64,000 bases of DNA from Paraspadella gotoi (taxonomy: Eukaryota > Animalia > Chaetognatha): assembly GCA_051294375.1 (NCBI GenBank), contig CM119264.1, forward strand, positions 21,547,582 to 21,611,581, written 5' to 3'. The translations under genes were made by a program, and so were the position numbers. The notes beneath the pieces were generated by a model, which did not search any database, was not told where the DNA came from, and saw only the letters and a list, made by a program, of their open reading frames with translations. The first letter of the stretch is position 1. Each line of letters begins with the position of its first letter. Of the stretch, positions 1 to 37,268 are shown one piece after another.

Positions 1-3000
1 AAAGAGATAAAAAGGTTAAAAACACCGACAAACAACTTTTTTAATGTAAAAATAGATAAAAATGTTAAATACACCGGCAGACGACTATGTAAAAAGAGCT
101 AAAAACGTTAAAAACACCCGAAAACGACTTTTCCAATGTCAATAAAGATAAAAACGTTAAAAACTCCGTAAAACGTCTTTTCCATTGTAAAAAAGGATAA
201 AAACGTTGAAAACAGCAGAAAACAACTTCTTCAATGGAAAAAGAGATAATAACTTTAATAACAAAGAAAAACGCTTTTTCCAATGTAAAAAGAAATAGAA
301 ACGTAGAAAACACCGGCAAACGATTTTTCAATTTAAAAAGAGATAAAAAAGTTAAAAAACCGACAAACAACTTTTCCAATGTAAAAAGAGATAAAAACGT
401 TAAATACACCGGCAAAGGACTTTCACTATGTAAAAAGAGCTAAAAACGTTAAAAACACCCGAAAAACCGAAAAACCGAAAAACGTCTTTTACATTGTGAA
501 AAAGGATAAAAACGTTGAAACCACCAGAAAACAATTTCTTCAATGTAAAAAGAGATAAAAACTTTAAAAACAAAGAAAAAAGAGATAAAAACGTAGAAAA
601 TACCGGAAAACGATATTTTCAAAGAAAAAAGAAATAAAAACTTCTGCAAACCACTTTTTCAAAATAAAAATAAATAAAAACGTTTAAAAAATTGGCAAAC
701 AACTTTTTGATTGTATAAAGAGATAAAAACGTTAAAAACACTAGAAAACGACTTTTCTTTTGTAGAATGAGATAAAAACGTTAAACACACCAGAAAACGA
801 CTTTTTCCTAGTAAAAAAAGTGAAAACGTTAAAAACACTGTAAAACGACTTTTCCAATTTAAAAAGAGATAAAAACATTGAAAACACCGGCAAACGATAT
901 TTTCAATTTAAAAAGAAATAAAAACGTTAAAAACTTCGGCAAACACAACTTTTTCATTATAGAAAAGAGTATAAAATGATTAAATACGCGGCACCAACGA
1001 TTTTTTCCAATGTAAAAAGGAGATAAAAAACACGACAAACGACTTTTCCATGTAAAAAGATATATAATAACGTTAAAAAACAACCAGCAAGACTGAATTT
1101 TCCAAAAAGAGATAAAAACTTTAAAAAAACAAAGGAACAAAACGCTTTTTCCAATGTAATAAAGATGATAATAACGTAGAAACACCGGCAAACGAGTTTT
1201 TTCAAATGTAAAAAAAATAAAAAACGTTAAAAAAGCATCGGCAAACATTTTTGGCAATATAAAAAAGAGAAAAAAAAGTATATACTAAAAACACCGAAAA
1301 AACACTTTTCAATGTAAAAAAGTAAAAACGTTAAATACACCGGCTAACGAACTTTTTCCTATGTAAAAAGAGCTAAAAGCGTTAAAAACACCGGAAAACA
1401 ACTTTTCCAATGTCAATAAAGAATAAAAACGTTAAATAACAGCATACGAAAGCGGAAAAAAATTTTTCTTCCTTGTAAAAGGATAAAAACATTAAAACAT
1501 CGGAGAAAACCGTGATTGTTTCAATGTAAAAAAGAGAAATAAAACTTTCAAAACAAATGAAAACGCTTTTTTCCAAGTAAAATAAAAAAATAAAACAAAC
1601 CGTAGAAACGACAGGAAAACGAATATTTTTCAAAAAGAAAAAAAGAAATAAAAACTTCTGCAAAACGCAGCTTTTTTCATATAAAAAAGATGAAAAGGTT
1701 CACAACACATCGACAAAACGACTTTTCCAATGTAAAAAGAAAAGATAAAACACGTTAAAAAAACGGCAGCAAACGACTTTTCCCAAAGAGATAAAAACTT
1801 TCAAAGAAAAAACGCTTTTTTCGCAATGTAGAAAAGATAAATACGTAGAAAACACAGCCTAAACGATTTTTTCAATGTAAAAAAGAAATAAAAAACTTTC
1901 GCGGAAACATTTTTTTAAATATAAAAGAGATTAAAAGGCTTTAAAACACCAAACAAACAACTTTTCCAATGTAAAAAGAGATAAAAACGTTAAATGATGC
2001 ACCGGTTAACGGACTTTTCCTGATGTAAAAAGAGCTAAAAACGTTAAAAACCCGCGGATAATACGACTTTTCCATTGTCAAAGTNNNNNNNNNNNNNNNN
2101 NNNNNNNNNCGATTTTTTCAATGTAAAAAAAAATAAAAACGTTAAAAACATCGGCAAACATTTTTTGCAATATAAAAAGAGAAAAAAAGTATAAAAAACA
2201 CCGAAAAAACAACTTTTCCAATGTAAAAAAAGATAAAAACGTTAAATACACCGGCAAACGACTTTTCCTATGTAAAAAGAGCTAAAAACGTTAAAAACAC
2301 CGGAAAACAACTTTTCCAATGTCAATAAAGATAAAAACGTTAAAAACACCGAAAAAATTCTTTTCCAATGTAAAAAAGGATAAAAACATTGAAAACAGCA
2401 GAAAACAACTTTTTCAATGTAAAAAGAGATAAAAACTTTAAAAACAAAGAAAAACGCTTTTTCCAATGTAAAAAAAATAAAAACGTAGAAAACACAGGAA
2501 AACGATATTTTCAAAGAAAAAAGAAATAAAAACTTCTGCAAACCACTTTTTCAATATAAAAAAAGATGAAAAGGTTCAAAACATCGACAAACGACTTTTC
2601 CAATGTAAAAAGAGATAAAAACGTTAAAAAAACCAGCAAACGACTTTTCCCAAGAGATAAAAACTTTAAAACAAAGAAAAACGCTTTTTCCAATGTAGAA
2701 AAAGATAAAAACGTAGAAAACACCAGCAAACGATTTTTTCAATGTAAAAAGAAATAAAAACTTCGGGAAACATTTTTTTAAATATAAAAAGAGATTAAAA
2801 GGTTAAAAACACCAACAAACAACTTTTCCAATGTAAAAAGAGATAAAAACGTTAAATACACCGGTTAACGACTTTTCCTATGTAAAAAGAGCTAAAAACG
2901 TTAAAAACACCCGAAAACGACTTTTCCATTGTAAAAAAGGATAAAAACGTTGAAAACAGCAGAATAATACTTTTTCAATGTAAAAAGAGATAAAAACTTT

Positions 3001-5225
3001 AAAAACAAAGAAAAACGCTTTTTCCAAAGTAAAAAGAGATAAAAACGTAGAAAACACCGGAAAACGATATTTTTTAAGAAAAACGAAATAAAAACGTTAC
3101 AAACTTCTGCAAACAAATTTTTCAATATAAAAATAGATAAAAAGGTTAAAAACACCGGCAAACAACTTTTTGATTGTATAAAAAGATAAAAACGTTAAAA
3201 ACACTAGAAAACGACTTTTTCCTAGAAAAAAAATGAAAACGTTAAAAACACTGTATAACGACTTTTCCAATGTAAAAAGAGATAACAACGTTAAATACAC
3301 CGGCAGACGACATTTCCTATGTAAAAAGAGATATAAACATTAAAAACACCAGCAAACGATTTTTCAAAGAGATAAAAACTTTAAAAACAAAGGAAAACGC
3401 TTTTTCCAATGTAAAAAGAGATAAAAACGTTGAAAACACCGGCATACGATTTTTTCAATGAAAAAAGAAATAAAAACGTTAAAAACTTCGGCAAACATTT
3501 TTTGAAATATAAAAAGAGATAAAAAGGTTAAAAACACCGACAAACAACTTTTCCAATGTAAAAAAAGATAAAAACGTTAAATACACCGGCAAACGACTTT
3601 TCCTATGTAAAAAGAGCTAAAAACGTTAAAAACACCCGAAAACGACTTTTCCAATGTCAAAAAAGATAAAAACGTTAAAAACGCCGAAAACCGTCTTTTC
3701 CATTGTAAAAAAGGATGAAAACGTTGAAAACAGCAGAATACCACTTTTTCAATGTAAAAAGAAATAAAAAATTTAAAAACAAAGAAAAACGTATTTTCCA
3801 ATGTAAAAAGAGATAAAAACGTAGAAAACACCAGAAAAAGGATATTTTCAAAGAAAAACGAAATAAAAACGTTAAAAACTTCTGCAAACAACTTTTTCAA
3901 TATAAAAAAGATAAAAAGGTCAAAAACACCGGCAAACAACTTTTTGATTGTATAAAAAGATAAAAACGTTAAAAAACACCAGAAAAAGACTTTTTCCTAG
4001 TAAAACAAATGAAAACGTTAAAACTTTTCCAATGTAAAAAGAGATAAAAACGTTAAAAACACTAGCAAACTTCTTTTCCAATATAAAAAGAGATAAAAAC
4101 TTTTAAAAAACCGGCAAACGATTTTTCCAATGTAAAAAGAGATAAAAAACACCGACAAACGACTTTTCCATTGTAAAAAGAGATACGAATGTTAAATACA
4201 CCGGCAGACGACATTTCCTAGGTAAAAAAAGATAAAAACGTTAAAAACACCAGCAAACGACTTTTCCAAAGAGATAAAAACTTTAAAAACAAAGAAAAAC
4301 GCTTTTTCCAATTTAAAAAGAGATAAAAACGTAGAAAACACCGGCAAACGATATTTTCAATAAATAATGTTAAAAACTTCGGCAAATATTTTTTTTCAAT
4401 ATAAAAAGAGATAAAAACGTTAAATACACCGGCAAACGGCTTTTCCTATGTAAAAAGAGCTAAAAACGTTAAAAACACCCGAAAACGACTTTTCCAATGT
4501 CAATAAAGATGAAAACATTAAAAACACCGAAAAACGTATTTTCCATTGTAAAAAAAGATAAAAACATTGAAAACACCAGAAAACAACTTCTTTACAAAAG
4601 AAAAGTCGTTTTTTGATGTTTTTAACGTTTTTAGCTTTTTTACATAGGAATAGTCGTTTGACGGGGTTTTCAACGGTTTTATTTCGTTTTTTTATTGGAA
4701 AAGTCATTTGCCAAAGTTTTGAACGTTTTTCATTCTTTTTACATTGGACAAGTGCTTTTTCGGTGTTTTTAACGTTTTTATCTCTTTTTGCATTGGAAAA
4801 GTCGTTTTCCAGTGTTTTTAATGTTTACATTTTTTTTACTAAGTAAAAGTCGTTTGCTATTGTTTTTAACTTTTTTATCAATTTTTAAATTTAAAAAGTC
4901 GATTGTCGCTGGGAAAGTCGTTTGCCAAAGTTTTTAACGTTTTTATTTCTTTTTAGATTGAAAAAGTTGTTTGACGGTGTTTTCAAAGTTTTTATCTCTT
5001 TTTACATTACGTTTTCCGGTGTTTTTAACGTTTTTTGCTTTTTTTACATTGGAAAAGTCGTTTTACAGTGTTTTTAACGTTTTCATGTTTTTTACTAGGA
5101 TAAAGTCGTTTTCCGGTGTTTTTAACGTTTTTATCTCATTCTACAAAAGAAAAGTCTTTTTTTATCGGTTTTATCTCTTTATACAATCAAAGTTGTTTGC
5201 CGGTGTTTTTAACCTTTTTATCTTG
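1..5225. repeat. Satellite array, degenerate ~49-bp monomer (consensus-like aaaaagagataaaaacgttaaaaacaccggcaaacgacttttccaatgt) with higher-order variants; A-rich strand to ~4590, inverted ~4591-5225
   Basis: Continuous recurrence of gataaaaacgttaaaaacacc / aaacgacttttccaatgt; all ORFs here are low-complexity F/L/K translations of the repeat. Confidence 0.95.
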
Positions 5226-5253
5226 CTTTTGCTTGAGAGTCATAAAACTTTAG

Positions 5254-5624
5254 TGTTAGTTATATTTGAATTAGCCTCCAATTTAGTAATTAACTTTCGT
5301 TCAAATTTTTTCTCTCTAAATTTTCTCAGTTCCAAAGTTTAATATTTCATAGATTCCCAGGAACTCGGCGCCTATTTTGTAAACATTTTGTCTAAGTAGA
5401 ATAAACAAAGGAAGAGAGACGAGAAGGAGGCCGAGATTTTAGTGTATTCCATTTTTAGATCTCAAGGGAGTAAGACGCAATATTTTATCAACTGTTTTAT
5501 TAACTAATACAACTTTGGCAATTTACAATTATATCAGGTAACTTCAAAAACTAATTAGACAGATTATGCATAATCCAGCTCTCTATCTGACATCTATTGA
5601 GGGTCACAGGTCACGTTACCGACA
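5254..5624 (+). repeat. 5' LTR (371 bp)
   Basis: TG..CA termini, colinear with 14605-14966, contains AATAAA. Confidence 0.93.
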
Positions 5625-5636
5625 TGGTGGCCAGCG
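5625..5636 (+). promoter_or_regulatory. tRNA primer-binding site (TGGTGGCCAGCG)
   Basis: Starts with TGG (complement of tRNA CCA) directly after the LTR's terminal CA; same motif next to the LTR copy at 36949-36960 (minus). Confidence 0.85.
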
Positions 5637-5850
5637 TTGTTCGCTTAACGGACAGCCTCGAAGTTATCTGTACGCGCGAATGATTGTTTTTGTCCGAGTT
5701 GATAAGGGGGTAATATAAGATTTTTTTTTCTTTTCCCGATGATAGGATATGTGTTGAAATGTGAAGGAAATTTTCCTTGTAACAAATAGTATTTATTTTT
5801 TTTTGCCTTTCTGACATTAGAATATGAATTATGATTGGAGACGAAGAAAT

Positions 5851-6386
5851 TTTTAGTCGGCTCTGCTTATCAGCAGATCCCGACTCTATAAAACTCACTT
5901 TGTCGTCCGCCCCCTCAATATTGTCGGGCACACACTTATATCAGTCAGAACATCGAATTATGATAAATTATGCAAAAAAAATGATGTCCGTCCGTTCGTC
6001 GTCCGTCCGTCCGTCCGTCCGTCCGTCCCACCTTAGCAAAAAACTCCAATTACTCGTGATTGATGGATGGATTGGTATGAAATTTTGTGTGTGTGTGGTA
6101 GGAACTGTGTGATTGAGATGGATATGAAGTTTCGAGGGAATCGTGCGAGTGGAAATGGGGTTTAAATGGAAAAAACAAAAGTCATATTTTACTTGAAGTA
6201 TTTTTACTTAAATTTACTCATAATTATTATGTTTATTAAAATTGGATAGATAAATCGAAATTGATTTTTGTGTGTGGGTAGGAAAGTATGTGATGGAATC
6301 ATAGGAGTGGAAAAGAGTTCAAATTAGAAAACCAAAAGACACATTTTATTTGAATTTTTTAAAGTTTCTCTCTCTCTATCTCTCTC

Positions 6387-6422
<36 letters not shown>

Positions 6423-7709
6423 GATTGATTGATTGATTGATTGACCAAATTATGCCAATGTGACAAAAATATGCCAGTTGACCAAATTCCTAAAGTTGAC
6501 CAAATTATGCCAGTTGACCAAATTCTGCAAGTTGATCAAGTTCTGCAAGTTGACCAAATTATGCCTGTTGACCAATATTGATGCAAATAATAGGCCAGTT
6601 GATGAAATTATGCCAGTTGACCAAATTATGCCGGTTGACCAAATTATCTTAATTGATCGAATTATGTCAGTTGACCAAATTATGTCAGTTGACCAAATTA
6701 TGTCAGTAGACCAAATTATGTCAGTTAACCAAATTATGTCTGTTGACCAAATTAGGCAAGTTGATTAAATTATGCAAGTTGACCAAGTTAGCTTATTACC
6801 ACTTAATTATCGATTGACCTGGAATTTTGTTATATGAGTAGAAAAGTGTGTGATTGAACAGGAAACCAAGTTTTGATGAAATCTTTTGGGTAGAAATGAG
6901 TTTAATGGAAAAAACAAAAAACCTGTTTCACTAATTGATTATGATTCTTTTTCCTTTTATATTAAATGTATATGCAGGATGTATTAATAAATCAAATAAT
7001 TAATCAGTTAATTAATCAATTGTCAATTAATTAATCAATAATTAATAATCAGTCAATCAATCCGTCCATCCGTCCCACCTTAGCAAAAAGCTCCAATAAC
7101 TCGTGATTGGCTGTTGGATTAGAATGAAATTTTGTGTGGTGGGTAGGAAAGTGTGTGATAAAGCTGGATATAAAGTTTCGACGGAATCGTGTGAGTGGAA
7201 ATGAGTTTAAGAGGAAAAAACATAAGTCGAATTTACTAAAATATTTTTACTTATTTTAACCAATAAGTCCTCTAATTAATCATAATTGGATGGATAGATT
7301 GAGTTCAATTTTTTTGTGTGAGTAGAAAATGTGTAACGATGCTTGATTAAAGTTTCAGAGGAAACGTACGATGGAAATGAGTTTAAATGAAAAAAAATAT
7401 GAGTCACATTTACTTGATTCTTTTTACTTCTTTTAACCCATAATAGATTAAGATGAAATTTTTTGAGGCGGGTAGGAAAGTGTGTGAAAAAGCTAGATAT
7501 AAAGTTTTGACGGAATTGTGCCAGTGGAAATGAGTTTAAATGGAAAAAACATAAGTCACATTTACTTGAATCTTTATTATTTATGATTACTAATTTATGA
7601 TTACTAAATAAATGTTTTAATTAATTAATTAATTAATTAATTATGTGAAAAAATGATGCAATTTAAAAAAAATATGCAAGTTGAAAAAATGATGCAAAGC
7701 AAGGATCGA

Positions 7710-7765
<56 letters not shown>

Positions 7766-7799
7766 AGAAAAATGAGCATAAGGATCATCGCTATTGCAA

Positions 7800-7832
<33 letters not shown>

Positions 7833-8830
7833 AAAGAGAGCAGAAAATGAGCATAAGGATCATCGCAATTGCAAAGAGAGAGAGAGAGAGAGAGAGACAG
7901 AAAAATGAGCATAAGGATCGTTGCAATTGCAAAGAGAGAGAGAGAGAGAGAAGAGAGAGAGAGAAAGAGAGAGAGTCCGAGATAAATTAGCGAATAAAAA
8001 GTTGTTATTTTACTCACTTAATAAAAATACTTAAAATACTTGCAAAATACATAAAATTGATAAAATTATTATTCCGATAACAATGTTTAATCACATGCAA
8101 TATATCTAGTAAGGCGGGCCAAAATTGAACACTTTTTATAACTTCTAGTTCTCGTCTGCTTAACCATTATTTATTTGAGAGAACTTCTAGTTTTCAACCA
8201 GTTCCGGCCTAATATCTAGTAAGGCGGGCCAAAATTGAACACTTTTTAATAATTCTAGTTCTCTTTAAAATTTTTTTTCCTTTTACTACTAAATCGATTT
8301 TCAATGTAACTTTTTGAATTAGTTCATTGGGTTTGTTGCACTGAAGCTTTTAAATATTGATTAATATATAATAATTATATAAAGTTTTGACGGAATTGTG
8401 CCAGTGGAAATGAGTTTAGATGGAAAAAACATAAGTCACATTTACTTGAATCTTTAATATTAATGATTACTAAAATGTTTTAATTAATATATTAATTAAT
8501 TAATGTGAAAAAATGATGCAAGTTAAAATTTTTTTAAAAGCATAAAGATCGTCGCAATTGCATAAAAAAAAAAAAAAAAAAAGAGAGAGAGAGAGAGTAG
8601 AGAGAGAGAGAGAGAGAGAGAGACATAAATAAAATAGAGGATATTTGTTTGTTTTGATAAAATGTAATGATATTTAATAACTGTCCTAACCAATTTTAAG
8701 GACATCGATGATAGGTTGAATATAAATTTAAAATTAATTATTACATATTAAAATTTATTAATTAATTAATTAATCGATTAATTAATTAATTATCGTAGGC
8801 AGATCCGACATTGTTTGCTCAAACTTGTTT
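5851..8830 (+). mobile_element. Non-autonomous DINE-1/Helentron-associated (HINE-like) element nested in the LTR element leader
   Basis: 5' hairpin AGTCGGCTCTGCTtatcAGCAGATCCCGACT; (GTCC)n microsatellite at ~5986-6030; internal tandem repeats; 3' subterminal inverted copy GCAGATCCGAC (8799-8809), then a small stem and CTTG; inserted in a T run; the related leader at 36700-36780 (minus) lacks it (empty site). Confidence 0.8.
6440..6790 (+). repeat. 18-bp tandem minisatellite (gttgaccaaattatgcca-like) inside the HINE-like element
   Basis: Visible 18-nt periodicity; explains the VDQIMS-repeat ORF at 6460-6768. Confidence 0.9.
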
Positions 8831-9412
8831 TGAATATTGCTTACTCGAAAACCAAAACATTAACCTAAAGTCAAATAATAGATCACAAGTTTCTTATTAC
8901 GTCAAATATTTTTATTTTCACGCCTCACTTCGCGTCCTGTCAAACGATTTTTTTCGAGTTTTCTTTCCTTTAATTCCTCACTCTCAGATTATCTCTCCAA
9001 CCCTCTCGCAAAATAATATTTTATTTTCATGATTCAACGAATTCTTTCGAATTTTTTGGCACTAATTGTACTAAGGATCGACCGATGAAATGACTTGACA
9101 TAAAAAAGATTTTACTCCTAATTTCGACGTTTTGGTTTATTCTAAACTCTCCTTTTCACTCGATTCCATTTCCACGAATTTTAATTTAGTACAAATGCAT
9201 TTTCATTTGACTGAGTATGTTTATATTTTGTTTATTTTCTTTCTTTCTCGAAATACGGTTAAAACGAACAATGTATTTGGATAACTAAAATAGTAAGCAC
9301 GGAGGGTTACAAAGCAATTGAAATTGGGTCGAATAATATAAACGAGTTGAGACAGAATTTTTCCTTCCTTTAGGAGGGAGGGGAAAGTATACCTAAAGAA
9401 ACGAAAAATTAT

Positions 9413-10827
9413 ATGAGTAAACGAATTTATACTATTTTCACCAGGATCACAAGGAAAAATCAAGGCCGGATCGAAGGATTGCTATTGCTCTCTACGACCG
9501 AATATAAAATTACAACAAATTTTAAAACAAGGAGTACGAATTTTGATTACGGATTTACGACGGATTGCTACGGCTCTCTTGGCCGAATAAAATGAAATTG
9601 ACGGACATATAAAACAAAAGAAGTTTTCCCGTGGTGATTTGGATACTTGGACGATGCAGGAGCTCGTGAGAGAGTGTGACGTTGTTCAGACCTGCGTGCA
9701 AGACGCGATAGAAGCTCCGCTTTTGGTGTACAAAAAAGAGGCCGACCCACGATCGTCGAAGAAGCAACGCGTTTAGAGCTCATAGAGACCCGCTCTCCAA
9801 CATTACGCGTGAGGGCTCCGGATTCTTGTACGCAAAACTACAACACGCCACAGGCCCCACTGTTGGGTCCATGTTGAAAGTCAGAAGCGGTGAGGGCTAA
9901 CGACGACACAGGAGATACGACGAAATTGGCATGCCGCCGACGTCTGGAGCGGCTACTCCAGACGCGCCAATGGATCTTCGCATCGTTCCTGGAGAATGGA
10001 GAGAGAATGTTGCGTTCCGCTTTCTCTGTTCCACAACCTTTTCAAACTCGATGAATGCTGCTGCCTAATCCTTCGTGGCAATCGCCAGCTGCCGCGTCAC
10101 AGCAGTTTGGTCGTTGGATTGCCCCGAGGGCATTTCATCGTGAGGGCGTGGCCGACGCTGAACGGAGCCTTTTCCGGAAAGGAGTTTCAACGTCTTGGGG
10201 CTTATCGAATGCTTCTGCAATGCAGCAGCCGCCGCCACCGACACCAGGATTTGCTTCTCCTGCGCCGCCTGTTGTAGACTCTGCCGCACCGGGAGTTCCA
10301 CGTCCAGGTTCAGAATTACCCTATATGAGAAATGGATCCGTCAGAAACGTTTTAAAAATTCCTATTAGATTTTTCGACGTCTCACGAAACGAAATGTTTT
10401 ATTGCTAATTTACATTGCGGGAACCACTTTAGAGTGAATGGTGACGCTGTGATTGAATTAAAAGAAATTTAATTAATTAAATTTATAGAAAGCCTAGCCG
10501 AAATACGGGATGCATTGGTTTGGGCTGACGACACAAATTATTCATCTAATGGCCTCGTCAGTTACGATAGTGATAGTGATAGTGATAGTGCGCGTGCCGC
10601 GCGACGTTTTGATCGTACGAGAGTGAATGCGATCGATGAAAGTGAGTTTCTTGTTTAATCCCGAGGGAAGCGGGGATGAGGAAGATCAAAGTAAATCGTT
10701 TACAGTAAAAAGGAAACTAAACTATACCGAATCGGCGGAAAAGAAAGGGATTGGCAAGAATGTATGCTGGAATTGTTTTTCTGACAAACACATGGCAATA
10801 ACTTGTCTGAAGAAACGATGCCTGTAG
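9413..10827 (+). pseudogene. gag: Decayed gag with CCHC zinc knuckle
   Basis: CWNCFSDKHMAITC = C-x2-C-x4-H-x4-C in ORF 10627-10827; Pro-rich fragment at 10055-10408; lies between PBS and protease; broken into several ORFs, start uncertain. Confidence 0.75.
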
Positions 10828-10928
10828 GCTAACAAAATGAAACTGGAAGAAAAGAAAATGAAATGAATGTTTGAGATTAAAATTAAACATTTTGAAATCA
10901 GCAATGCAAAAAAAAAATTGATAGGGAA

Positions 10929-11345
10929 TTGGTGGTAAAGTTTTTTATGAGGAATATGTCAATAAACAAAACGGAAATAAACGTTTTTGCATATGTAATG
11001 GGAAATGAATGTCCGAATTTTTTAGGTAGTGATGTGTTGGCATCCAATGACAGTATAATTGACTATGAAAAACGTATATTAAAAATAAAAGGTGAAAAGG
11101 TAACCTTATTCCGTTCTCTGAGAGAGGCTAAATATAGTAGCTGGACAGACAGACCGAAAACCGAAAATATGAAATTTTCCCCTCGTACCGCGCTCTCTCT
11201 TCCTCCGACGGCTTTGACTTCCGTTGAAGTTGAACTCAGTGACCAAAATTCGGCGATCATCTTAACTCTTTGGTTAAACCGAATGACGGAGTAACCTAGG
11301 AAAAAGAAGAAAAGATTTATTGGGTCTTAATGATGAACAAAAACG
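10929..11345 (+). pseudogene. Retropepsin-like aspartic protease remnant (5' part of pol)
   Basis: NFLGSDVLASNDSIIDYEKRILKI resembles the C-terminal 'LGxD.L....IDY' motif of Ty3/Gypsy proteases; directly follows gag. Confidence 0.7.
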
Positions 11346-11850
11346 AAACAGCTCGTGCCTTAAATTATATACAAGAATTTTATGAAATTGGTACAACCAA
11401 TATAAAAATTATCCATTCATTTAATAAATAAGCTATCTTGCCCCTGACTTTGGACAGGCTTTGGTGGTTTAAGGCCTCCATCACTCTTACAAGATAATGA
11501 CATAGCATATTATTGTTCGTTTCATACCGTCGACTTTAAATGCCGCCGATCAAAGTTTGGAATCGAGCGACGTGAATTCGAAAATGTCAGGCTAAAAATA
11601 TTTTTCGCGATATTATTATTAGAAATTGACAGGGCGAGGTTATCCCTAACAAAAACCTATTTCGAAAAGGGGAAAAGAGGGCCCTTGGCAAAAATATCTA
11701 ATATTTCAAAAATAAATTCAGATTAATCAGAAATCTTCCCTTTAGAATCTTTTTGGGCCCTGAATCTCGAAGTGGATTCCGCTGCACCTCAGGGGTTGAC
11801 ACTCAAGAAGCAAACGAATCCGCCTGCAGATGGCAGTGTAAAAGGAATAA

Positions 11851-11950
11851 GGGCTGTTGTGAGAGGAAACCAAAGGATAAGGGCTGTTGTGAGAGGAAAC
11901 CAAAGGATAAGGGCTGTTGTGAGAGGAAACCAAAGGATAAGGGCTGTGAG
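11851..11950 (+). repeat. Perfect 30-bp tandem repeat x3 plus a partial unit (gggctgttgtgagaggaaaccaaaggataa) within a Cys-rich exon-like fragment
   Basis: Units at 11851-11880, 11881-11910 and 11911-11940 are identical. Confidence 0.95.
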
Positions 11951-12009
11951 AGGTTTAATTGTAATCGGATCATTGCTCCTGCTGCTGTAATTGTATATTT
12001 CAACTAAAT

Positions 12010-13188
<1,179 letters not shown>

Positions 13189-13561
13189 GAGAGAGAGCGA
13201 TCGATCATAAGTCGCCTTACTCGTTTTATTTCGATTTCTGGCGATACGATTTTTGTTATTAAATTATAAACAGATTTATTTTATTTTATCATTTTTTGAA
13301 AATGTTGATATGAAAATAAAAGGGTAATAACATACATATTGCCATGTAATGTTGATCGAAATCTACCTGGAAAAGGTTGGGAAAATTTATTCGAAATAAA
13401 TAAAATATTAACATTTCATACTTTGCGCTGAGGTGCGACCGGACGTTTCTTACTCCTGTTACGATGATTGAGGAGAGTACAAGGAACCGACAAACGATAC
13501 TTGGAACTTGAAGACCCTGAAATCATAATTTGTTTGCACCCTTTTACTTCAAAATAACCTG

Positions 13562-14011
13562 TTAGCACGAATCTGTTTGCACTTTTTCATTTCGACTTAA
13601 ATTGATTTTTGCATGTATCGGCACTGAATTAATTTGTACCTTTCTCTTACCGACACAATGACGACATTGAAGGGCGACGATGCCGATGATCAATACCAGA
13701 CAGACAATTGATAAAGCAGCAAGAACGACAAAGTAAAGAGTAGAATGGTCGGGCTGACAAATGCCGAAAACGCCTTGATTGGTGATGGGAATAGAACATG
13801 ATTTCCCATATTTCCAGCCGAGTCCGGCGAGCAGAGTGTAAAATGGCGCCGCAGACTGAACGAAAAAAATTTTCTCAATAGTGTTTACGAAATTTCTTAC
13901 CAAAATAATATTTTATATTTTACTTTAACTAAAAACCCGCCCTGGCGAAATAATCTTACCTTAAGGTTCTGAGTCTCTTACCCTTCCTACTGTTAAAAGG
14001 ATGAGCCACAT
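13562..14011 (-). CDS. Predicted 2-exon antisense gene in the LTR element: 107-aa type I membrane protein (exons 14011-13982, 13855-13562)
   Basis: ATG at 14011; MWLILLTVGR then donor AGG|GTAAGA; 126-nt intron; acceptor ttttttcgttcag| in phase 0; exon 2 SAAPFYTLLAGLGWKYGKSCSIPITNQGVFGICQPDHSTLYFVVLAALSIVCLVLIIGIVALQCRHCVGKRK...TDSC*. Confidence 0.6.
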
Positions 14012-14594
14012 TGCGGCACTGCACTCTGAGGACAACTGAGGTTGCCGGCACTGTTTTGAATTTAAATTAAAATTATGAAACGATTAATTTTAATTGGAAA
14101 TTGGTGACCTAATTATAATTTGCGCACCTTTCAAGAGGATGATAGACTGATCCGTTACACTTACTACTTTGGGGTTAGAAAAAGGAAGATTTTCCGTCGA
14201 TATGTGAAAAGATATCGAAAATTGATGAATGAATGAACGATTTCAGGACCGTGAATGACTTCCAAATTTGCGTAGAAATGTTTGTTTGATGTTTGTTTAC
14301 ATATTGGTCCCCAATATATAGGTATATAATTAATTTTACATTTTATTCTCGAACTGTTTGGCCGGCAGTTTCGACTTATTTTCAAAACAATTTTATTTTT
14401 GTTACGTTTTTTCATATTAGATGCAGCGCAGATTTATTTTTGTCCTTAATTTACTTTTCCCCAATTTAGCTATATGTGATCAATTGTAATACCGTTATAA
14501 CTATTAAGATTATTTGTACTACTGCCTTACATGTGATCATTTGTACTCACTGTTTAGCTTACTCATCTATTTGCTATTTAACAAAATTTGTTTT

Positions 14595-14604
14595 GGGGGG
14601 GAGA
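14595..14604 (+). promoter_or_regulatory. Polypurine tract
   Basis: GGGGGGGAGA immediately before the 3' LTR TG. Confidence 0.85.
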
Positions 14605-14966
14605 TGTTAGTTATATTTTAATTGGCCTCCAATTTAGTAATTAACTTTCTTTCAAATTTTGTCTCTTTAAATTTTCTCAGTTCTAAAGTTTAATATTTCA
14701 TAGATTCCCAGGAACTCGGCGCCTATTTTGTAAACATTTTGTCTAAGTAGAATAAACAAAGGAAGAGAGACGAGAGGGAGGCCGAGATTTTAGTACATTC
14801 CATTTTTAGATCTCAAGGGAGTAAGACGCAATATTTTATCACTGTTTAATTTTCTAATACAACTTTGGCAATCTACAATTATTTAAGTTAACTTCAAAAA
14901 CTAATTAGACAGATTATGCATAATCCAGCTCTCTATCCGTCATCTAATGAGGGTCCGCTACCGACA
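14605..14966 (+). repeat. 3' LTR (362 bp)
   Basis: Colinear with 5254-5624, ends ACCGACA followed by TSD TTAG. Confidence 0.93.
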
Positions 14967-14970
14967 TTAG

Positions 14971-17900
14971 AAACAAAGAAACACGCTTTTTCCAATGTAA
15001 AAAGAGATAAAAACGTAGAAAACACCGGCAAACGATATTTTCAATGTAAAAAGAAATAAAAACGTTAAAAACTTCGGCAAACAACTTTTTTAATATAAAA
15101 AGAGATAAAAAGGTTAAAAACATTGAAAAAGGACTTTTCCAATGTAAAAAGAGATAAAAACGTTAAATACACTGGCAGACGACATCTCCTATGTAAAAAG
15201 AGATAAAAACGTTAAAAACACTAGCAAACTTCTATTCCAATATAAAAAGAGATAAAAACTTTTAAAAAAAGGGGCAAACGATTTTTCCAATGTAAAGAAG
15301 ATAAAAAACACCGACAAACGACTTTTCCAATGTAAAAAGAGATAAAAACGTTAAATACACCGGCAGACGACATTTCCAATGTAAAAAGAGATAAAAACGT
15401 TGAAAACACTAGCAAACTTCTTTTCCAAAATAAAAAAAGATAAAATCTTTTAAAAAACCGGCAAACGATTTTTCCAAAGTAAAAAGACCAAAAAAAAACC
15501 GATAAACGACTTTTCTAATGTAAAAAGAGATAAAAACGTTAATTACACCGGAAGACGACATTTCCTATGTAAAAAGAGATAAAAACGTTAAAAACACCAG
15601 CAAACGACTTTTTCAAAGAGATAAAAACTTTAAAAACAAAAAAATCCCGCTTTTTCCAACGTAAAAAGAGATAAAAACGTTAAAAACTTTTCCAATAAAA
15701 AAAAATAAAACCCTTGAAAAACCCGTCAAAAAAAAGCTAAAAACGTTAAAAACATCAAAAAAAAACTTTTCTTTTGTAAATAGAGAAGAAAACGTTAAAA
15801 ACTTCGGCAAACAACTTTTCCAATATAAAAAGAGATAAAAACTTTAAAAAAACCGGCAAACGATTTTTTCCAATTCAAAAAGAGATAAAAAACAACGATA
15901 AACGACTTTTCTAATGTAAAAAGAAATAAAAACGTTAAATACACCCGCAGACGACATTTCCTATCTAAAAAGAGATAAAAACGTAAAAAACACTAGCAAA
16001 CTTCTTTTCCAATTTAAAAACACCAGAAAACGACTTTTCTAATGGAAAAAGAGTTAAAAACGTTAAAAACACCGAAAAACGTCTTTTCCATTGTAAAAAA
16101 GGATAAAAAGGTTGAAAACACCAGAAAACAACTTCTTCAATGTAAAAGGAGGTAAAAACTTTAAAAACAAAGAAAAACGCTTTTTCCAATGTAAAAAGAG
16201 ATAAAACGTAGAAAACACCGGAAAACGATATTTTCAAAGAAAAAAGAAATAAAAACGTTAAAAACTTCTGCAACCAACATCATTGAGGTTGTTAAAATTG
16301 GGTGAGGACAGTTATTAAATATGTTTTTTTTACTTTTATCAAAACAAACAAATTTCCTCTTTTTTATTTTTGTGTCTCCTCTCTCTCTTTTCTCTTTTAA
16401 TTATATGTAGCTTTCTCTCACTCTTAAGAGATAAAAACGTTAAAAACACCAGAAAACGACTTTTCCTTTGTAAAAAGAAATGAAAACGTTAAAAATAACA
16501 GAAAACGATTTTTTCCAATGTAAAAAGAAATAAATGCGTTAAAAACAGCGACAAACGACTTTTCCAATATAAAAAGAGATAAAAACTTTAGAAACAAAGA
16601 AAAACGCTTTTTCCAATAGAAAAAGAGATAAAAGCGTAGAAAACACCGGCAAACGATATTTTCAATGAAAATAGAAATAAAAACGTTAAAAACTTCGGAC
16701 AACAACTTTTTCAATATAAAAAGATATAAAAAGGTTAAAAACATCGACAAACGACTTTTCCAATGTAAAAAGAGATAAAAACGTTAAATACACCGGCAGA
16801 CGACATTTCCAATGTAAAAAGAAATAAAAACGTTAAAAACACTAGCAAACTTCTTTTCCAATATAAAAAGAGATAAAAACTTTAAAAAAACCGGCAAACG
16901 ATTTTTCCAATGTTAAAAGAGATAAAAAAAACCGATAAACGACTTTTCTAATGTAAAAAGAGATAAAAACATTAAATACACCTGCAAACGACTTTTTTAA
17001 AGAGATAAAAACTTTAAAAACAAAGAAAAACGCTTTTTCCAATGTAAAAAGAGATAAAAACGTTAAAAACTTTGGCAAACGACTTTTCCAATAAAAAAAA
17101 AATAAAACCGTTGAAAAACCCGTAAAACGACTATTCCTATGTAAAAAATACTAAAAATGTTAAAAACATCAAAAAACGACTTTTCCTTTTCCTTTTCTTA
17201 TGTAAAAAGATCTAAAAACGTTAAAAACACTGAAAAAAGACTTCTCCGTTTTCTTTTCCTATGTAAAAAGAGCTAAAAACGTTAAAAACACCAGAAAACG
17301 ACTTTTCCAATGTCAAAAGGGATAAAAACTTTAAAAACACCGAAAAAGTCTTTTCCATTGTAAAAAAGGANNNNNNNNNNNNNNNNNNNNNNNNNNNNNN
17401 NNNNNNNNNNNNNNNNNNNNNNNNNNNNNNNNNNNNNNNNNNNNNNNNNNNNNNNNNNNNNNNNNNNNNNTTTTACATTACGTTTTCAGTATTTTTAACG
17501 TTTTTAGCTCCTTTTACATTTTAAAAATTCGTTTTACAGTGTTTTTAACGTTTTCATTTTTTTACTAGGAAAAAGTCGTTTTCCAGTGTTTTTATTTCTT
17601 TTTTCTTTGAAAATATCGTTTCCGGTGTTTTCTACGTTTTTTTCTCTTTTTACATTGGAAAAAGCGTTTTTCTTTGTTCTTAAAGTTTTTATCTCTTTTT
17701 ACATTGAAAAAGTTTTTTCTGGTTTTTTCAATATTTTTATTCTTTTTTTACAATGGAAAATAATTTTTTTTCGGTGTTTTTAACGTTTTTATCTTTATTG
17801 TCATTGGAAAAGTTGTTTTCCGGTGTTTTTAACGTTTTGAGCTCTTTTTACATAGGAAAAGTCGTTTGCCGGTGTATTTAACGTTTTTATCTCTTTTTAC

Positions 17901-19540
17901 ATTGGAAAAGTTGTTTGTCGGTGTTTTTAACCTTTTTATCTCTTTTTATATTTCAAAAAATGTTTGCCGAAGTTTTTAACGTTTTTATTTCTTTTTACTT
18001 TGAAAAATCGTATGCCGGTGTTTTCTACGTTTTTATCTCTTTTTACATTGGAAAAAGCATTTTTCTTTGTTTTTAAAGTTTTTATCTCTTTGAAAAATCG
18101 TTTGCTGGTGTTTTTAAGGTTTATATCGCTTTTTACATAGGAAATGTCGTCTGCCGGTGTATTTAACGTTGTTATCTCTTTTTACATTGGAAAAGTCGTT
18201 TTACAGTGTTTTTAACGTTTTCATTTTTTTTACTAGGAAAAAGTCGTTTTCTGGTGTTTTTAACGTTTTTATCTTTTTATACAATCAAAAAGTTGTTTGC
18301 CGGTGTTTTTAACCTTTTTATCTATTTTTATATTGAAAAAGTGGTTTGCAGAAGTTTTTAACGTTTTTAATTCTTTTTTCTTTGAAAATATCGTTTTCCG
18401 GTGTTTTCTGCGTTTTTATCTCTTTTTACTTTGAAAAAAGCGTTTTTCTTTGATTTTAAAGTTTTTATCTNNNNNNNNNNNNNNNNNNNNNNNNNNNNNN
18501 NNNNNNNNNNNNNNNNNNNNNNNNNNNNNNNNNNNNNNNNNNNNNNNNNNNNNNNNNNNNNNNNNNNNNNAGAAAAGTCGTTTTCTGGTGTTTTTAACGT
18601 TTTTATCTTTTTATACAATCAAAAAGTTTTTTGCCGGTGTTTTTAACCTCTTTATCTTTTTTTATATTGAAAAAGTTGTTTGCAGAAGTTTTTAACGTTT
18701 TTATTTCTTTTTTCTTTGAAAATATCGTTTTCCGGTGTTCTCTACATTTTTATCTCTTTTTACCTTGGAAAAAGCGTTTTTCTTTGTTTTTAAAGTTTTT
18801 ATCTCTTTTTAGAAGAAGTTTCTGGTGTTTTCATGAGATAAAAACGATAAAAAAACCGGAAAACGACTTTTTCCTAGTAAAAAAAATGAAAACGTTAAAA
18901 ACACTGTAAAACGACTTTTCCAATGTAAAAAGAGCTAAAAACGTTAAAAACACCGAAAAACGTAATGTAAAAAGAGATCAAAACATTGAAAACACATGCA
19001 AACAACTTTTTCAATGTAAAAAGAAACAAAAACGTTAAAAACTTTGGCAAATGACTTTCCCAGCGACAATCGACCTTTTCAATTTAAAAATGGATAAAAA
19101 GTTAAAAACACTAGCAAACGACTTTTCCCTAGTAAAAAAAATGTAAACGTTAAAAACACTTGAAAACGACTTTTCCAATGCAAAAAGAGATAAAAACATT
19201 AAAAACACCAAAAAAGCACTTTTCCAATGTAAAAAGAATTAAAAACGTTAAAAACTTTGGCAAACGACTTTTCCAATAAAAAAAGAAATATAACCGTTGA
19301 AAACCCCGTCAAACGACTTTTCCTATGTAAAAAAAGCTAAAAACGTTAAAAACATCAAAAAACGACTTTTCTTTTGTAAAAAGAGATGAAAACGTTAAAA
19401 ACACCGAAAAACGACTTTTCCTTTTCATTTTCCTATGTAAAAAGAGCTAAAAACGTTAAAAACAAGGAAAAACGATTTTTTCAATGTAAAAAAAGATAAA
19501 CACATACAAAACACCGGCAAACAATATTTTCAATGTACAT
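14971..19540. repeat. Continuation of the ~49-bp satellite; A-rich 14971-17370, T-rich (inverted) 17471-~18830, A-rich ~18835-19540; two 100-N gaps
   Basis: Same monomer motifs as 1-5225; ~18840-19380 is a reverse-complement relative of ~4591-5140. Confidence 0.95.
16272..16424 (-). mobile_element. Short fragment of the HINE-like element embedded in the satellite
   Basis: ttaaaattgggtgaggacagttattaaatat...ttttatcaaaacaaacaaa matches the reverse complement of ~8636-8712. Confidence 0.7.
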
Positions 19541-24367: not shown

Positions 24368-24547
24368 CCTCTCTCTCGCCAATAACCCGTTAATGGGCGG
24401 GAACCAATTTTTGACAGAAACGATTTTTCATTTAAAGTCGCTATTTGTTCCTCGACAATAATTGCATCGCTTGCTTAAAACAGAGGCGTTTTTTTTTTCG
24501 TTAAAATATTCTTTTGATTCGTAAGGAAAGTCTCATTTCTCAACAGC

Positions 24548-26523
24548 ATGAAAATCAAGGCAGTCACGGTCAACGATGACGGACATTCTATTTGCAGTAG
24601 ATCTGAGGATAGCCTCAACGAAAACGTTCGAATCTCCGTTCTGCGAATATCGGAAGCTGCAGACGAAAACTTGGACGCTTCATCGGTCAAAAGCCATCGG
24701 ACAACATCGATTGCCAGCTCGCTCGTTGCATCATTTACAGACAAGCGGCAAATCTTTAAGCCCAAACTATCTTCATTTTCGATCACAATCCTTCTTCTCG
24801 TCCTTGTGATTGTTCAGCGAAGCGTCGCCGTCTCCCCCACGACCTCCTCCACCGGGGATGCCCTGTCCATCCCCTCGACTATCGCCTCCACCCCTTCTAC
24901 CCCTCCCTCCGCCCCCGTAGACTTTTACTCTTTCACCGTCAAAACCCCAGGGGGTCGCTCCTTCCCGCTCTCCAAATTTCGCGGGAAACTGACCCTGGCG
25001 GTCAACGTGGCCAGCGAATGCGGCTACACCGACGATCACTACCACGAGATGGTGGAGACGAGCACCATTTTTAAAGGTGAGGGGGGGTTGGGAGCTGGAT
25101 GAGCCGTTGAGAGTAAACAAGGGAGTTGGACTAGACGGAAAGGGGGACGTGAGATTAGTGAGAAACCCATTTGAATATTCGCTGAAAATAACATATTTAT
25201 AGTTCAATTTGAATACTTAAGTTTCTAAGTTAACATTTTATGGCCAATCTAAACCCGTTTTCCTCTTTTATGCATGAACAGACAGTTTGATTGGTTTTTT
25301 CCCTTTCACTAAATTCACCGAATTTTGCGTCTTTTTTATGGCCTCTGATGCTATTTCTAATTATCTATAATTTATTTATTTATGACACTCCTCAAAAATT
25401 ATACATAGTTTATTTCGAGTCTGTAGTTTTGTAGTTATTAGTGAACGAGAAAAAATACTTAATTTCAGCACAAAATGCTGACTTGCTAAAAGGACATAAC
25501 ATATTCATAGATAAAAATAGGTTATCTTTAAATGTCTCATAAAAATAAAAATCAAAAATCGTTTTCTTTATATAAAGCGCTAATTAAGTAACTCCAATTC
25601 GCCAATTTCCTAATAATGTTCAAATATTTTGACTTTTCACGATTTCGAGTTCCTGGCTGATTTTGACCTATTTAGGTTGACCTCATCTAATTCCCTCTGA
25701 TTTGTTTCGCCATCCTCCTCATCCTCATCAATCAACTCGCCAATCCTTTCATACCCTCCCAGCTACGCCCCGCCCTTCTCAGTTCTCACTATTCTTTTTA
25801 ACCCTTTCCTGACTCCAGATTATCCCTTCGACATCCTGGCATTCCCGTGCAACCAGTTCGGAGAACAGGAGCCGGCGCCAAGCCGAATCGTCGCCAGATT
25901 CGTCAAGAGTTATTACAAAGTCAAGTTCCCCGTCTTTCACAAGATCGCCGTTAAGGGTGAGAGATAAATGGGATGGGGTGAGGACTGAGGGGTGAGGGGT
26001 GAGGAGGGAGCGCGTGAATTTTGAGAGTGAAGTTAGTTTCTGGAGGATTACTCGTTTTTGTTGTTTTAAATCGTCTTTTGACAATGTTGTGGGCTTTTTC
26101 TTTTCGTCCTCGTCATTTTTGTGGGCTTTTTCTTTTCGTCCTCGTCATTTTTACATTTATGGTAAACAATACTTTAAAGAATTATTAATTTATTTAAAAT
26201 TTTTTTTTTAAACATAATGGCATACAGAAGCAGTCGTCGTATTCTTCTGCCTAAGAGAACCTCCCTATGTCAAATGTCATCTCTATCCATCGTCGGTCAA
26301 GGTTTCCAAAGCTCATTTCGGAAATTCTTGGGCGCCCGATGTCCGTTCGTGGATAATTTGCGAGTATGAAAAAAAAGGGTGTAATCTCAATCAGTGGTCG
26401 AGGATTGAAAGGAACGAAGACAAAAGGCTGGCGCTGTTTTTCCCTCTCTTTGTTCTCTCCTCTGAGCTTAATTTCAAAAAATTCACTCATTTGTCGCCGG
26501 GACGTTGGTTTGTACAAGGGAGG

Positions 26524-27590: not shown

Positions 27591-28528
27591 TTGAATAAAA
27601 AAAATGTATTTACAAGTAAGCCTGCTTAGCGGCAGACGCTACCTGATATTCTGTAAATTGCCTGTACATCATTAGACGGATCTGTAATTTACTCTGTCGG
27701 TCTGTTGGTCGACGACCATCGTTTGGTCACTTAAATCATCTTAGAACTTCGAATGATGAGAAATTATGTAAAATAAAATGTCCGTTTCCTATGAAAGACG
27801 CGGAACAGAGAGGGGCGTTTCGCACGAGTAGCGTGGTGTGGCGAGGGGAGGCGAGGGGGGCGTTGAATTGAAGAGCTGTCCTTAATTCAAGAATTCAAAT
27901 GTTTAACGAAAGCAAAGTTCATATTTTATTTAAAAGAGTTTAAAACGTGCAAAATCCAATGAATCTTTCTTTCAGTTAATTCACACTCCCCAACGTTCCC
28001 TAGATCGCGTTCAGTCCAAGTGGAACCCATCTCCCTTAGCTCGATCTCTCCTCGTCCTCGAGCAAGCTCCTCCTCCTCCTACTCCCTTCAGCTGTCCTTT
28101 CTCCTCAAGCTTCGATCGTCAACGTTTCTCGTGCTAGCGGCCACGTCGTCGATGGCGGCGTCGGCGTCCCGGGACGTGCTCGGGGCGTCCTGGCCGTCCC
28201 CGTTTTTCGATAGTCCTTTCAACATGCGATCCATCGTTTATATTCGATAATTTCTTTACGCGGAGCGAATGGACTATATTGTTAACGCGGCTTGTCGAGC
28301 GGAGGCCAGGGTGGCGTCGTAATCGAGGCTAGCCACNNNNNNNNNNNNNNNNNNNNNNNNNACACCACGTAAACGTTAACGCAAGAATATCAATGTTTAC
28401 TAAAGCAATGTTTATTTTAATTCTAAACAGATGATTTGAACGAGACAAAAGGAAAGGATTTTTATTTCAAGTTTCAAGTCCAAACGCTCCTTAGATCGCG
28501 TACAGTTCGAATGCTGCCGGGAGCGAGT

Positions 28529-28772
28529 CCCGCTCCTACTTCGCTTGCTCTCCTCTCCTCATCCTCAGGAGCAAGTCCTCCTTCTCTCCTCCCGCTCCTA
28601 CTTCGCTTGCTCTCCTCTCCTCATCCTCAGGAGCAAGCTCCTTCTCTCCTCCCGCCCCTACTTCGCTTGCTCTCTCTCCTCATCCTCAGGAGCAAATCCT
28701 CCTTCTCTCCTCCCGCTCCTACTTCGCTTGCTCTCCTCTCCTCATCCTCAGGAGCAAGTCCTCCTTCTCCTG
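28529..28772. repeat. ~62-bp pyrimidine-rich tandem repeat x4 (also at ~31459-31700)
   Basis: cccgctcctacttcgcttgctctcctctcctcatcctcaggagcaagtcctccttctctcct recurs four times per copy. Confidence 0.9.
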
Positions 28773-29793
28773 GTCTTTTGCATTGTCCCTTGCTCCTCCT
28801 ACGTTCGATCGTTTTGTGAGCGAGCGTTTGCTGTTTGTTTGTTGTCGTTGTTGTCGTCGATGATATGAATATACTTAATAATAATCAACAGGTTTTCCCT
28901 TTAAAATCTATTTTAAAAAATTTCAGCATGGGGGGAAAAAAATTTAACAATATTAGTTACCATAGTAAATAGGTTAGGTTTTACATAAAAATATTTTTAT
29001 TATAACAAATTATTTTTAAAATAGATAACTTCACAATCAGCATTAAAAATTGTTAAATTGTTAAAAACTGTAAAATCTTGGAGGAAAAAATGAAGAAAAG
29101 TGACTCTGCGCTTGAGAGCCACTGTGATTATACTATTAGGAAATTTGAACATTTTTTTAAGTCAACATAAACGTCAAGTAGTTTCTAACTAATAAATGTT
29201 TAAAAATAATATACAGTGAAAGAATTACGAGTTTAATCAAGTCTTTTTTGTATCGGTCCAGATTGAAGATAGAGAGAGAAATTGTTTTTATTAGTAACAC
29301 TTTATATCCTTTTTGTGTGTGGAAGTACACTTTCACCGTGTAGAAAATAAAAATATGACATCTGTAATCAATTCCACTTGTCTGGGCTCATGATGCCTAG
29401 TGGGGTTGAGATGGACTTCTGTAGCATCTCTAGCTACAAGACTCTGACTGAGGCTGTCCCGAGATGAATAAAAAGTGTGAATAAGTTTTTGTCTTTTATT
29501 TCTATTTACAACAATTTGTACATCAAAATTTTTGAGTGGAGAGGAACTGATATCTCTCTCTTTTCTGCTTTCCTTTTTATACTTTTCTTAGACCACCCTT
29601 AAGATATTGCGCAACCGGATCTTTGGATTTCACTGGGATTGTGAAATCAAGACCCAAAAATTCCTTTGAAAGTACTTTTACTTCAAGGATGTAACTCTCC
29701 TTAAAAATGACATATTTTTTATGCCAGTTGTTAACATAGGAATAACACCTGGGATATATAATTTCTTTATTACCAGAATGGTCAGAAAAGGGT

Positions 29794-31044: not shown

Positions 31045-31311
31045 GGTTTCGATTTTTTTGCTTTCTACGTCGCGAGAGAAAAAATCTCTTTTGTCTTTAA
31101 TCGATCGGCGCGAAGCGATGCGAGAAAAAAGATTTTTCGTAGCGTTATTGGAAAAGTTCGCAAAGTGATCGCGTAAGTTCTGTAGTCGGGCATAGCAAAG
31201 TTCACCCCGCCTCTAAGCATGAATCCTTCAGTCGTGACCCGCGTGGCTTCATTGAGTAAGGCCATCAGCTCATGACCACCAGTACGGGTTCAATCCCAAT
31301 CTCCTCTCTCG

Positions 31312-36699: not shown

Positions 36700-37268
36700 T
36701 TTATGTTTTTTTGGTTTTCGAGTAAAAATATCCAAAAACTTTTCGTCCCCAATCATAAATCATCTTTTAATGTCAGAAAGGCAAAAAAATATATACTATT
36801 TGTTACAAGAAAAATTTCCGTCACATTTCAACACATCCTATTATCGGGAAAAGAAAAGAAAAAATCTTATATCACCCTATTATCAACTCGGACAAAAATA
36901 AATATTCGCGCGTACAGATAACTTCGGGGCTGTCCGTTAAGCGAACAACGCTGGCCACCATGTCGGTAACGTGACCTGTGGCCCTCAATAGATGTCAGAT
37001 AGAGAGCTGGATTATGCATAATCTGTCTAATCAGTTTTCGAAGTTACCTGAAATAATTGTTGATTGCAAGAGTTGCATTAATTAACGAAACAGTTGATGA
37101 AATTTTACTTCTTACTCGCGCGCAAAGTCGTCATGGTGTAACCACGCCCATACGGACGACGACGATGCTCGCCCACTAAAGTCCGTGATTTGTATGGCGA
37201 CAATCGCACTAAAGAAATAATTAGTGCAAGCAACAAAAGGAGACAGTATTAACTAATTAAAGTTTACA
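36700..37268 (-). mobile_element. Truncated relative of the 5254-14966 element: LTR (37268-36961), PBS (36960-36949) and leader
   Basis: 36961-~37117 matches the 3' half of the LTR; 36700-36948 matches leader 5637-5850 joined to 8831-8860; the remainder up to TGTAAAC at 37268 is unrelated to the other LTRs. Confidence 0.85.

Follow-up and report, generated by a model that had tools for sequence, protein, structure and literature searches.

The question raised by this locus is what a short open frame on the minus strand of an LTR element, at the place where an envelope gene would sit, is or once was. The window, i.e. the whole stretch of 64,000 nucleotides of Paraspadella gotoi DNA that was analysed, was described in an earlier note as holding an env-less Gypsy element with a spliced antisense gene for a 107-aa, single-pass, FAST-like membrane protein. 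A spliced antisense membrane-protein gene between pol and the polypurine tract was supported by the present analysis, whereas the 107-aa single-pass model and the FAST assignment were not.

The LTR element occupies positions 5254-14966 of the window. Its two plus-strand LTRs of about 370 nt (5254..5624 and 14605..14966) begin with TG and end with CA, align with 342 matches, 20 mismatches and 3 gaps (K2P 0.057), and are flanked by the target-site duplication TTAG (5250-5253 and 14967-14970). A PBS-like TGG... stretch abuts the 5' LTR (5625..5636, plus strand), and a polypurine tract lies at 14595..14604 on the plus strand, so that the LTR pair, TG..CA termini, target-site duplication, PBS and polypurine tract by which Ty3/Gypsy elements are recognised are all present. 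No tRNA genes were found in the 64-kb window. The coding part is heavily eroded. A decayed integrase on the plus strand (12015..13059; zinc finger partly deleted, rve core) carries 3 stops and 1 frame change, gave a Pfam rve match under the curated cut-off (E 2.3e-06) and shows 33-55% identity to relatives in tblastn. Upstream of it, tblastn with the pol of relatives detected a remnant of the RNase H end or connection region (11488..11728, plus strand). Residues 1-459 of the pol of a related locus, L001, found no tblastn match in the element, which upstream of 11488 has lost RT and the greater part of RNase H. A plus-strand ORF at 10896..11294 is probably a decayed aspartic protease region, a call made from the ORF, its position and what we take to be an LG.D.L-type motif; Pfam returned no match for this ORF, and a Pfam search of the element identified no gag. 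The element lacks env, as observed before, but the losses extend well into pol.

The integrase has 87 relatives at E 0.001, the best of them 60% identical. In the closest two (P0008 and P0011), pol is ordered RT, RNase H, integrase, which places the element in Ty3/Gypsy; the window copy keeps the RNase H end before the integrase and has no RT. None of the 10 clusters of relatives examined bears a clade name. In sum, this is an old Gypsy-type LTR element that has lost its RT. In the pol of P0089, P0008, P0011 and L001, RNase H and integrase are separated by a long stretch of low complexity that contains Cys pairs. A second, truncated copy of the family lies on the minus strand at 36734-37117 and consists of the 3' half of the LTR, the recurring PBS-like stretch and leader, about 90% identical.

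Other repeats have invaded or surround the element. The leader (5850-8800) is filled by tandem units, (GA)n runs and repeats resembling 55317-55701 and 38273-38408, another (GA)n run (13079-13185) breaks up the end of the integrase, and the whole is embedded in a 49-bp satellite array (1-5250 and 14970-19400) whose orientation flips several times. Elsewhere in the window, host exons were recognised for a glutathione peroxidase (24518-25102), a DEG/ENaC channel (46753-47154) and an intron-containing Kv1/Shaker channel (50797-52363); these exons point to an animal host. A duplicated 433-aa ORF on the minus strand (30577-31212 and 32732-34033) has no Pfam match, and the pair is possibly part of another mobile element; repeat-rich duplicated plus-strand stretches (28427-28868 and 31364-31808) adjoin it.

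The antisense frame as first described could be confirmed in part. The minus-strand ATG at 14011 opens an exon of 30 nt (14011-13982, MWLILLTVGR), which ends at the donor AGG/GTAAGA and is followed by a 126-nt intron (13981-13856) with three in-frame stops, the acceptor TTTTTTTCGTTCAG and an open frame of 97 aa plus stop (13855-13562), giving 107 aa once joined to exon 1. The transmembrane (TM) helix, with a mean Kyte-Doolittle value of 3.21 over 21 uncharged residues, is present and is followed by CRHC and KRK. The glycine-rich stretch PFYTLLAGLGW, to which the earlier note had drawn attention, exists in the window, but one of its Gly codons differs in all three listed sister contigs that cover it. 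That this frame is open even though gag and pol are broken is correct as well but carries little weight: with 3 stops and 1 frame change over some 1045 nt, the integrase is disabled about once every 260 nt, and at this rate an open frame of 294 nt is expected about one time in three.

Chance alone does not readily produce the combination of features. Two null models were each run with 1000 Markov shuffles, and neither yielded a frame of this length with such a helix and basic patch; relaxing the threshold to 80-aa/2.5 gave 2 and 10 such frames, and the loosest setting (60-aa/2.0) gave 9 and 53. Of 33 tiles of equal size from the rest of the window, 1 passed. Block shuffling, with two introns permitted where the real sequence was allowed three, produced in 0 of 400 cases a spliced model that begins with ATG, reaches at least 100 aa and has such a helix. 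All these tests were designed after the feature had been seen, and their significance is thus somewhat overstated. Between 13270 and 14604, nine donor-like GTRAG sites lie on the minus strand and none on the plus strand (expected 1.6); none of 2000 shuffles reached nine, and 2 of 144 overlapping windows elsewhere did. Exons 1-3 of the model given below have a GC content of 0.44-0.54 and the introns one of 0.29-0.36, while exon 4 is not GC-richer. The antisense frame, its splice signals and its membrane helix thus exist beyond chance. The word GTAAGA occurs five times within 530 nt of the minus strand (13981, 13959, 13900, 13650 and 13453; expected 0.26), which exceeds the needs of the gene model.

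The revised exon-intron model changes mainly the 3' half of the gene. Exon 1 (13982..14011), which starts with the ATG and encodes 10 aa, may be longer at its 5' side and begin at an acceptor at 14051, the exon so extended (14050-13982) having a GC content of 0.54 and no stop; a stronger-looking donor at 13959 was rejected, as it puts a stop after the ATG. Intron 1 (13856..13981, 126 nt, GC 0.29) is followed by exon 2 (13640..13855, 72 aa, GC 0.47) with a Cys-x12-Cys loop, a 23-residue TM helix, CRHC and KRK. Intron 2 (13517..13639, 123 nt, GT..AG, GC 0.32) starts on the minus strand with AAG/GTACAA, ends with ATGATTTCAG, holds three in-frame stops and includes the tail and stop of the first model. 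A predicted exon 3 of 21 aa (13454..13516) contributes a second hydrophobic segment between the acceptor ATGATTTCAG/GG and the donor GGA/GTAAGA. It precedes a predicted intron 3 of 87 nt (donor 13453, strong acceptor 13367) and a predicted exon 4 of 25 aa plus stop (13289..13366, acceptor TCCCAACCTTTTCCAG/G), which has a GC content of only 0.26 and is the weakest part of the model. AATAAA-type signals lie at the 3' end, at 13285 and 13230. Together, the four minus-strand exons encode 128 aa with no internal stop, and hydropathy alone gives peaks of 1.3, 3.3, 1.8 and 1.0. The modelled introns of 126, 123 and 87 nt are all in phase 0 and, like a possible upstream one of 114 nt, are multiples of three (13289-14164, minus strand), so that every exon lies in one genomic frame; intron 3 contains no in-frame stop, and its retention would therefore keep the frame.

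Evidence for splicing comes from X1, the sole public run found with the segment, which is of uncertain kind (RNA by guess), contains 17% of the sampled words and yields strandless contigs. One sister contig departs from the window at 13639, and its loose part resembles 13485-13516: roughly 26 of 32 columns agree, and within exon 3 the length differs by a single base. This is a by-eye reading of a single contig and is absent from the automatic joint table, in which both sides were aligned and 12 loose ends were not displayed. Random deletions in the region have GT..AG ends in 0.8% and GTR..YAG ends in 0.17% of cases, and of the five junctions examined the other four, i.e. the joints listed in the table, are not GT..AG (0/4). 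The 13639-13517 junction appears to be the best indication of antisense splicing, although it stands by itself. By this junction the last 25 residues and the stop of the first model (13562) fall within an intron, so the 107-aa end is probably not genuine, and a product of about 128 aa with additional hydrophobic segments is likelier than one of 107 aa. No spliced joint at 13855/13982, as predicted for intron 1, was listed among the X1 contigs, which show presence and not absence. A joint 13371->13457 was considered as intron 3 and rejected, measuring 85 nt instead of the predicted 87 and having non-canonical ends, though within 5 nt of both ends; joints of 78, 64 and 140 nt were rejected as introns on either strand. 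That antisense splicing is real we regard as probable, and that exon 3 belongs to the gene as rather likely.

The segment is not particular to this insertion. Aligned at 80% likeness, 73 contigs of X1, 80-99+% alike, cover 30 of 30 bins of 13200-14960, none of them spanning the whole stretch; the segment is thus multi-copy and diverged. Over 13550-14020, 12 contigs align, and the counts given here are based on 8 listed pieces, with another 6 in existence. Three small indels were found among them, all in intron 1 (P ~0.04, with 570 exon and 312 intron bases), a value counted on the 8 displayed pieces plus one inferred piece and weakened by the homopolymer runs in intron 1. Two bigger losses of 78 and net 60 nt, each a multiple of three, lie inside exon 2 of listed contigs; the first deletes the two cysteines of the loop, and the other deletes one of them together with the start of the helix. 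None of nine differences in TM codons introduces a charge, Pro or a stop (neutral chance 0.10; listed contigs). Synonymous sites in exon 2 of the first model showed no excess of differences among the listed contigs (4/23 versus 6.5 +/- 2.1 expected), and one sister contig carries a premature stop. The juxtamembrane CxxC has one Cys changed in one of three listed covering contigs. Nor is the layout of exon 1 and intron 1 kept in any of the three listed contigs over the first acceptor: in one the AG is changed, another has no donor and no exon 1 (joint 13908->14049), and the third changes to unlike sequence at 13864. Over exon 2, the deepest sister contig has an ectodomain shortened by 78 nt and exits at 13864 into unlike, GC-rich sequence; it possibly represents a subfamily with a different 5' part.

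Two further signals were discarded. A synonymous pattern of 11/23 in another minus-strand frame was the best of six frames tested and yields no plausible protein, and a drop in contig depth after 14792, in the 3' LTR, was set aside as a sign of RNA in X1, as contig depth cannot show ends. Most likely, the window copy evolves neutrally. Neutrality is expected of old dead copies, so the missing selection signal does not bear either way on whether the gene once functioned.

Searches for relatives of the product gave little. A similarity search of 5.8 billion proteins, made with exon 2 of the first model against proteins of near length and with the 72-aa exon against longer ones, found nothing, and in this series a protein search with the element integrase also gave nothing. 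Scans of viral contigs with P0003, P0001 and alignment A2 revealed no relative. Pfam searches with the exons singly and with the intron-containing read-through produced only weak matches to TM-adjacent models; connexin and claudin families were missing from the results even with the limit at E 10. The first Atlas matches (0.90 and 0.85, with low recognition scores) were to assorted unrelated small single-pass families and are leads only. An AlphaFold model of P0001 made without an alignment had a mean pLDDT of 62 and one confident helix (residues 37-69; block pLDDT 88 and 94 over residues 41-60), for which Foldseek found no matches at E 0.001 in the viral and PDB libraries. Sequence, profile and fold searches of the exons and the read-through provide no link to FAST proteins.

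More can be learned from the one related locus that was obtained (L001, one of 294 pattern matches), which shares about 48% integrase identity and has an intact 1423-aa pol frame. Its pol is followed by a sense ORF (4205-5002, plus strand) that is GDSL/SGNH-like (Lipase_GDSL_2, E 9.9e-05, below cut-off), and about 1 kb after pol contains neither an antisense membrane gene nor any similarity to the window region. That a different gene sits in this slot suggests that the slot between pol and the polypurine tract takes exchangeable cargo. A similar situation is known from bdelloid rotifers, whose LTR elements carry varied ORF3 cargo after pol (Vesta4, Vesta6c and Vesta1), including SGNH hydrolases and 210-230-aa proteins with two TM regions and cysteines between them (PMC5408684). 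The changeable cargo is alike, and the ORF of L001 resembles Vesta1 ORF3; unlike the window gene, rotifer ORF3s are longer, that of Vesta4 has RXXR and a coiled coil, and PMC5408684 uses neither the word 'intron' nor 'opposite'.

In position and orientation, the window gene is identical to the antisense ORFs between pol and the 3' LTR that are termed aORF-3R and comprise maize Grande gene23, for which an own antisense promoter was demonstrated, rice RIRE2 and Retand TRP28 (PMC7264820, PMC11963269). It falls under their positional definition, is multi-copy, has one GT..AG junction read by eye in X1, and shows weak indel and TM signals without synonymous excess, old copies being expected to look neutral. 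The brtn gene of Botrytis Boty is reportedly another antisense additional ORF of this type. In contrast to the window gene, which is in an animal element and has a predicted small membrane product and several short introns, the aORF-3R genes covered by these sources are from plants and fungi, with described products that are nuclear or predicted to bind DNA. In the literature searched, which included few subscription papers, no LTR retrotransposon of an animal was described with a membrane-protein gene that is both antisense and spliced.

Which protein was encoded can be weighed between several readings. The one advanced first, a two-exon, 107-aa, single-pass, p10-like FAST fusogen replacing Env, has a good deal of architecture in its favour. 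As in the p10 FAST proteins of orthoreoviruses and the p10/p11 look-alikes of pistolviruses (PMC12945298), the window copy combines two ectodomain cysteines, a TM helix, juxtamembrane cysteines and a basic patch (R, K, R and K at most 9 residues from the TM) without myristate, and it occupies the env position. It also resembles the insect sORF2 in being a small TM protein with a juxtamembrane basic patch in an env-less Gypsy-type element. In the preprint (bioRxiv 10.1101/2025.03.14.642691), sORF2 is an insect MDG1-group protein of 63-107 aa, mostly myristoylated, that has a single TM and an ectodomain of around 30 aa; the screen asked for 60-210 aa, an ectodomain of 10-50 aa, N-out/C-in topology by TMHMM and Phobius, MGxxxS/T and one TM. 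The 107 or 128 aa and the 49-aa ectodomain of the window gene lie within these sizes, 7 of 22 lepidopteran sORF2s are sited after pol, and that of Stalker has no myristoylation motif. FAST proteins tolerate a hydrophobic patch in the endodomain (PMC12945298), so that exon 3 is not necessarily a second TM. Against this stand the orientation, as all 105 published candidates are sense; the predicted splicing, as sORF2 transcripts of D. melanogaster are reported there to be unspliced; probably more hydrophobic segments; and the lack of MGxxxS/T, since an alternative myristoylation-type start, proposed in the earlier note through a 1-nt insertion, has a length difference at that place in 0 of 3 listed contigs covering it. 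Purifying selection, described for sORF2 in PMC13486581, was not observed among the listed contigs. The p10 cystine loop (PMC12945298) has 11 residues between its cysteines and a hydrophobic patch, and adjacent, palmitoylated juxtamembrane cysteines follow the TM. The window gene, by comparison, has 12 residues, a 19-residue Kyte-Doolittle value of ~0, a CxxC, a hydrophobic N-terminal extension and loop cysteines of which one or both are gone in two sister contigs, and sequence similarity was not found. With the tail probably intronic besides, and neither family, sequence nor fold matches, this reading seems to us quite unlikely, and a true FAST-type fusogen in any form is given the same low standing. 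As the gene is not sense, carries no myristoylation motif and lacks a conserved p10 loop, it is not filed under sORF2/FAST.

A host gene for a multi-pass membrane protein (connexin-, claudin- or PMP22-like), of which a part was captured antisense together with its introns but never used by the element, would account for the three or four hydrophobic segments of the four-exon model, the neutral substitutions and the absence from L001. The best PDB matches of exon 2 are all connexin 26 (TM3-loop-TM4, 68-74 residues), but at non-significant E-values of 0.11-0.53 and with no other connexin entry scoring, so that the assignment to connexins was rejected; the Cys/basic linker of exon 2 is, we presume, claudin-like. 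The Pfam result, the unrelated single-pass families matched in the Atlas and the avoidance of exon 2 by small indels speak against such a capture, which is judged improbable, though less so than the fusogen. Still less credible is the view that no gene was ever there and that an AT-rich 3' UTR by chance holds a hydrophobic frame, its GTAAGA/TCTTAC repeats being a sense-strand RNA or DNA signal. It draws on the lack of a selection signal, a homologue and a splice joint in the automatic list, on nine donor-like words where the model uses three or four, and on null tests shaped post hoc; the shuffles (0/1000 and 0/400), the GC steps at predicted exon borders and a junction with GT..AG ends argue the other way. 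What was observed plainly, i.e. the anatomy of the element, a non-random TM frame, minus-strand splice signals and the segment in diverged sisters, is on balance best explained as the probable relic of an antisense, multi-exon accessory membrane-protein gene in an old Gypsy-type element, which presumably served an env-less family at a cell membrane. That it was once a real coding gene is considered very probable.

In such a relic, a transcript of three or four exons would start from an antisense promoter, for which the 3' LTR or its vicinity is the candidate seat. The introns would survive retrotransposition because they are on the strand opposite the genomic RNA, an idea already put forward in the earlier note and shared here. 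The product of about 128 aa would be hydrophobic at its N-terminus and would further have a loop with two cysteines, a single strong TM helix, a Cys/basic linker and one or two weaker hydrophobic segments. This membrane protein might have helped particles of an envelope-less family to get to adjacent cells or to enter them; such a broadly defined role in cell-to-cell passage, argued from position and architecture, is possible yet doubtful.

It is similarly hard to credit, at the level of the fusogen reading itself, that a Gypsy lineage outside the insect type evolved its own Env substitute in the form of an antisense, intron-containing, alternatively spliced gene for a p10-like cystine-loop micro-fusogen. 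If true, it would be the first antisense and first spliced FAST-like member, invisible to screens for sense, unspliced, myristoylated ORFs, and the fusogen would be regulated apart from the genomic RNA, so that a cell could become fusogenic without making particles. Even a passenger host fragment would still document that an intron-bearing gene was captured into a slot with exchangeable cargo. The antisense accessory genes known from LTR elements come mainly from plants and fungi and look mostly nuclear, and the small membrane proteins that may replace Env have been described as sense. If an animal element has a membrane gene that is spliced and antisense, it would unite these two classes, and it would show that ORF-based screens for Env substitutes miss intron-bearing cases on the opposite strand.
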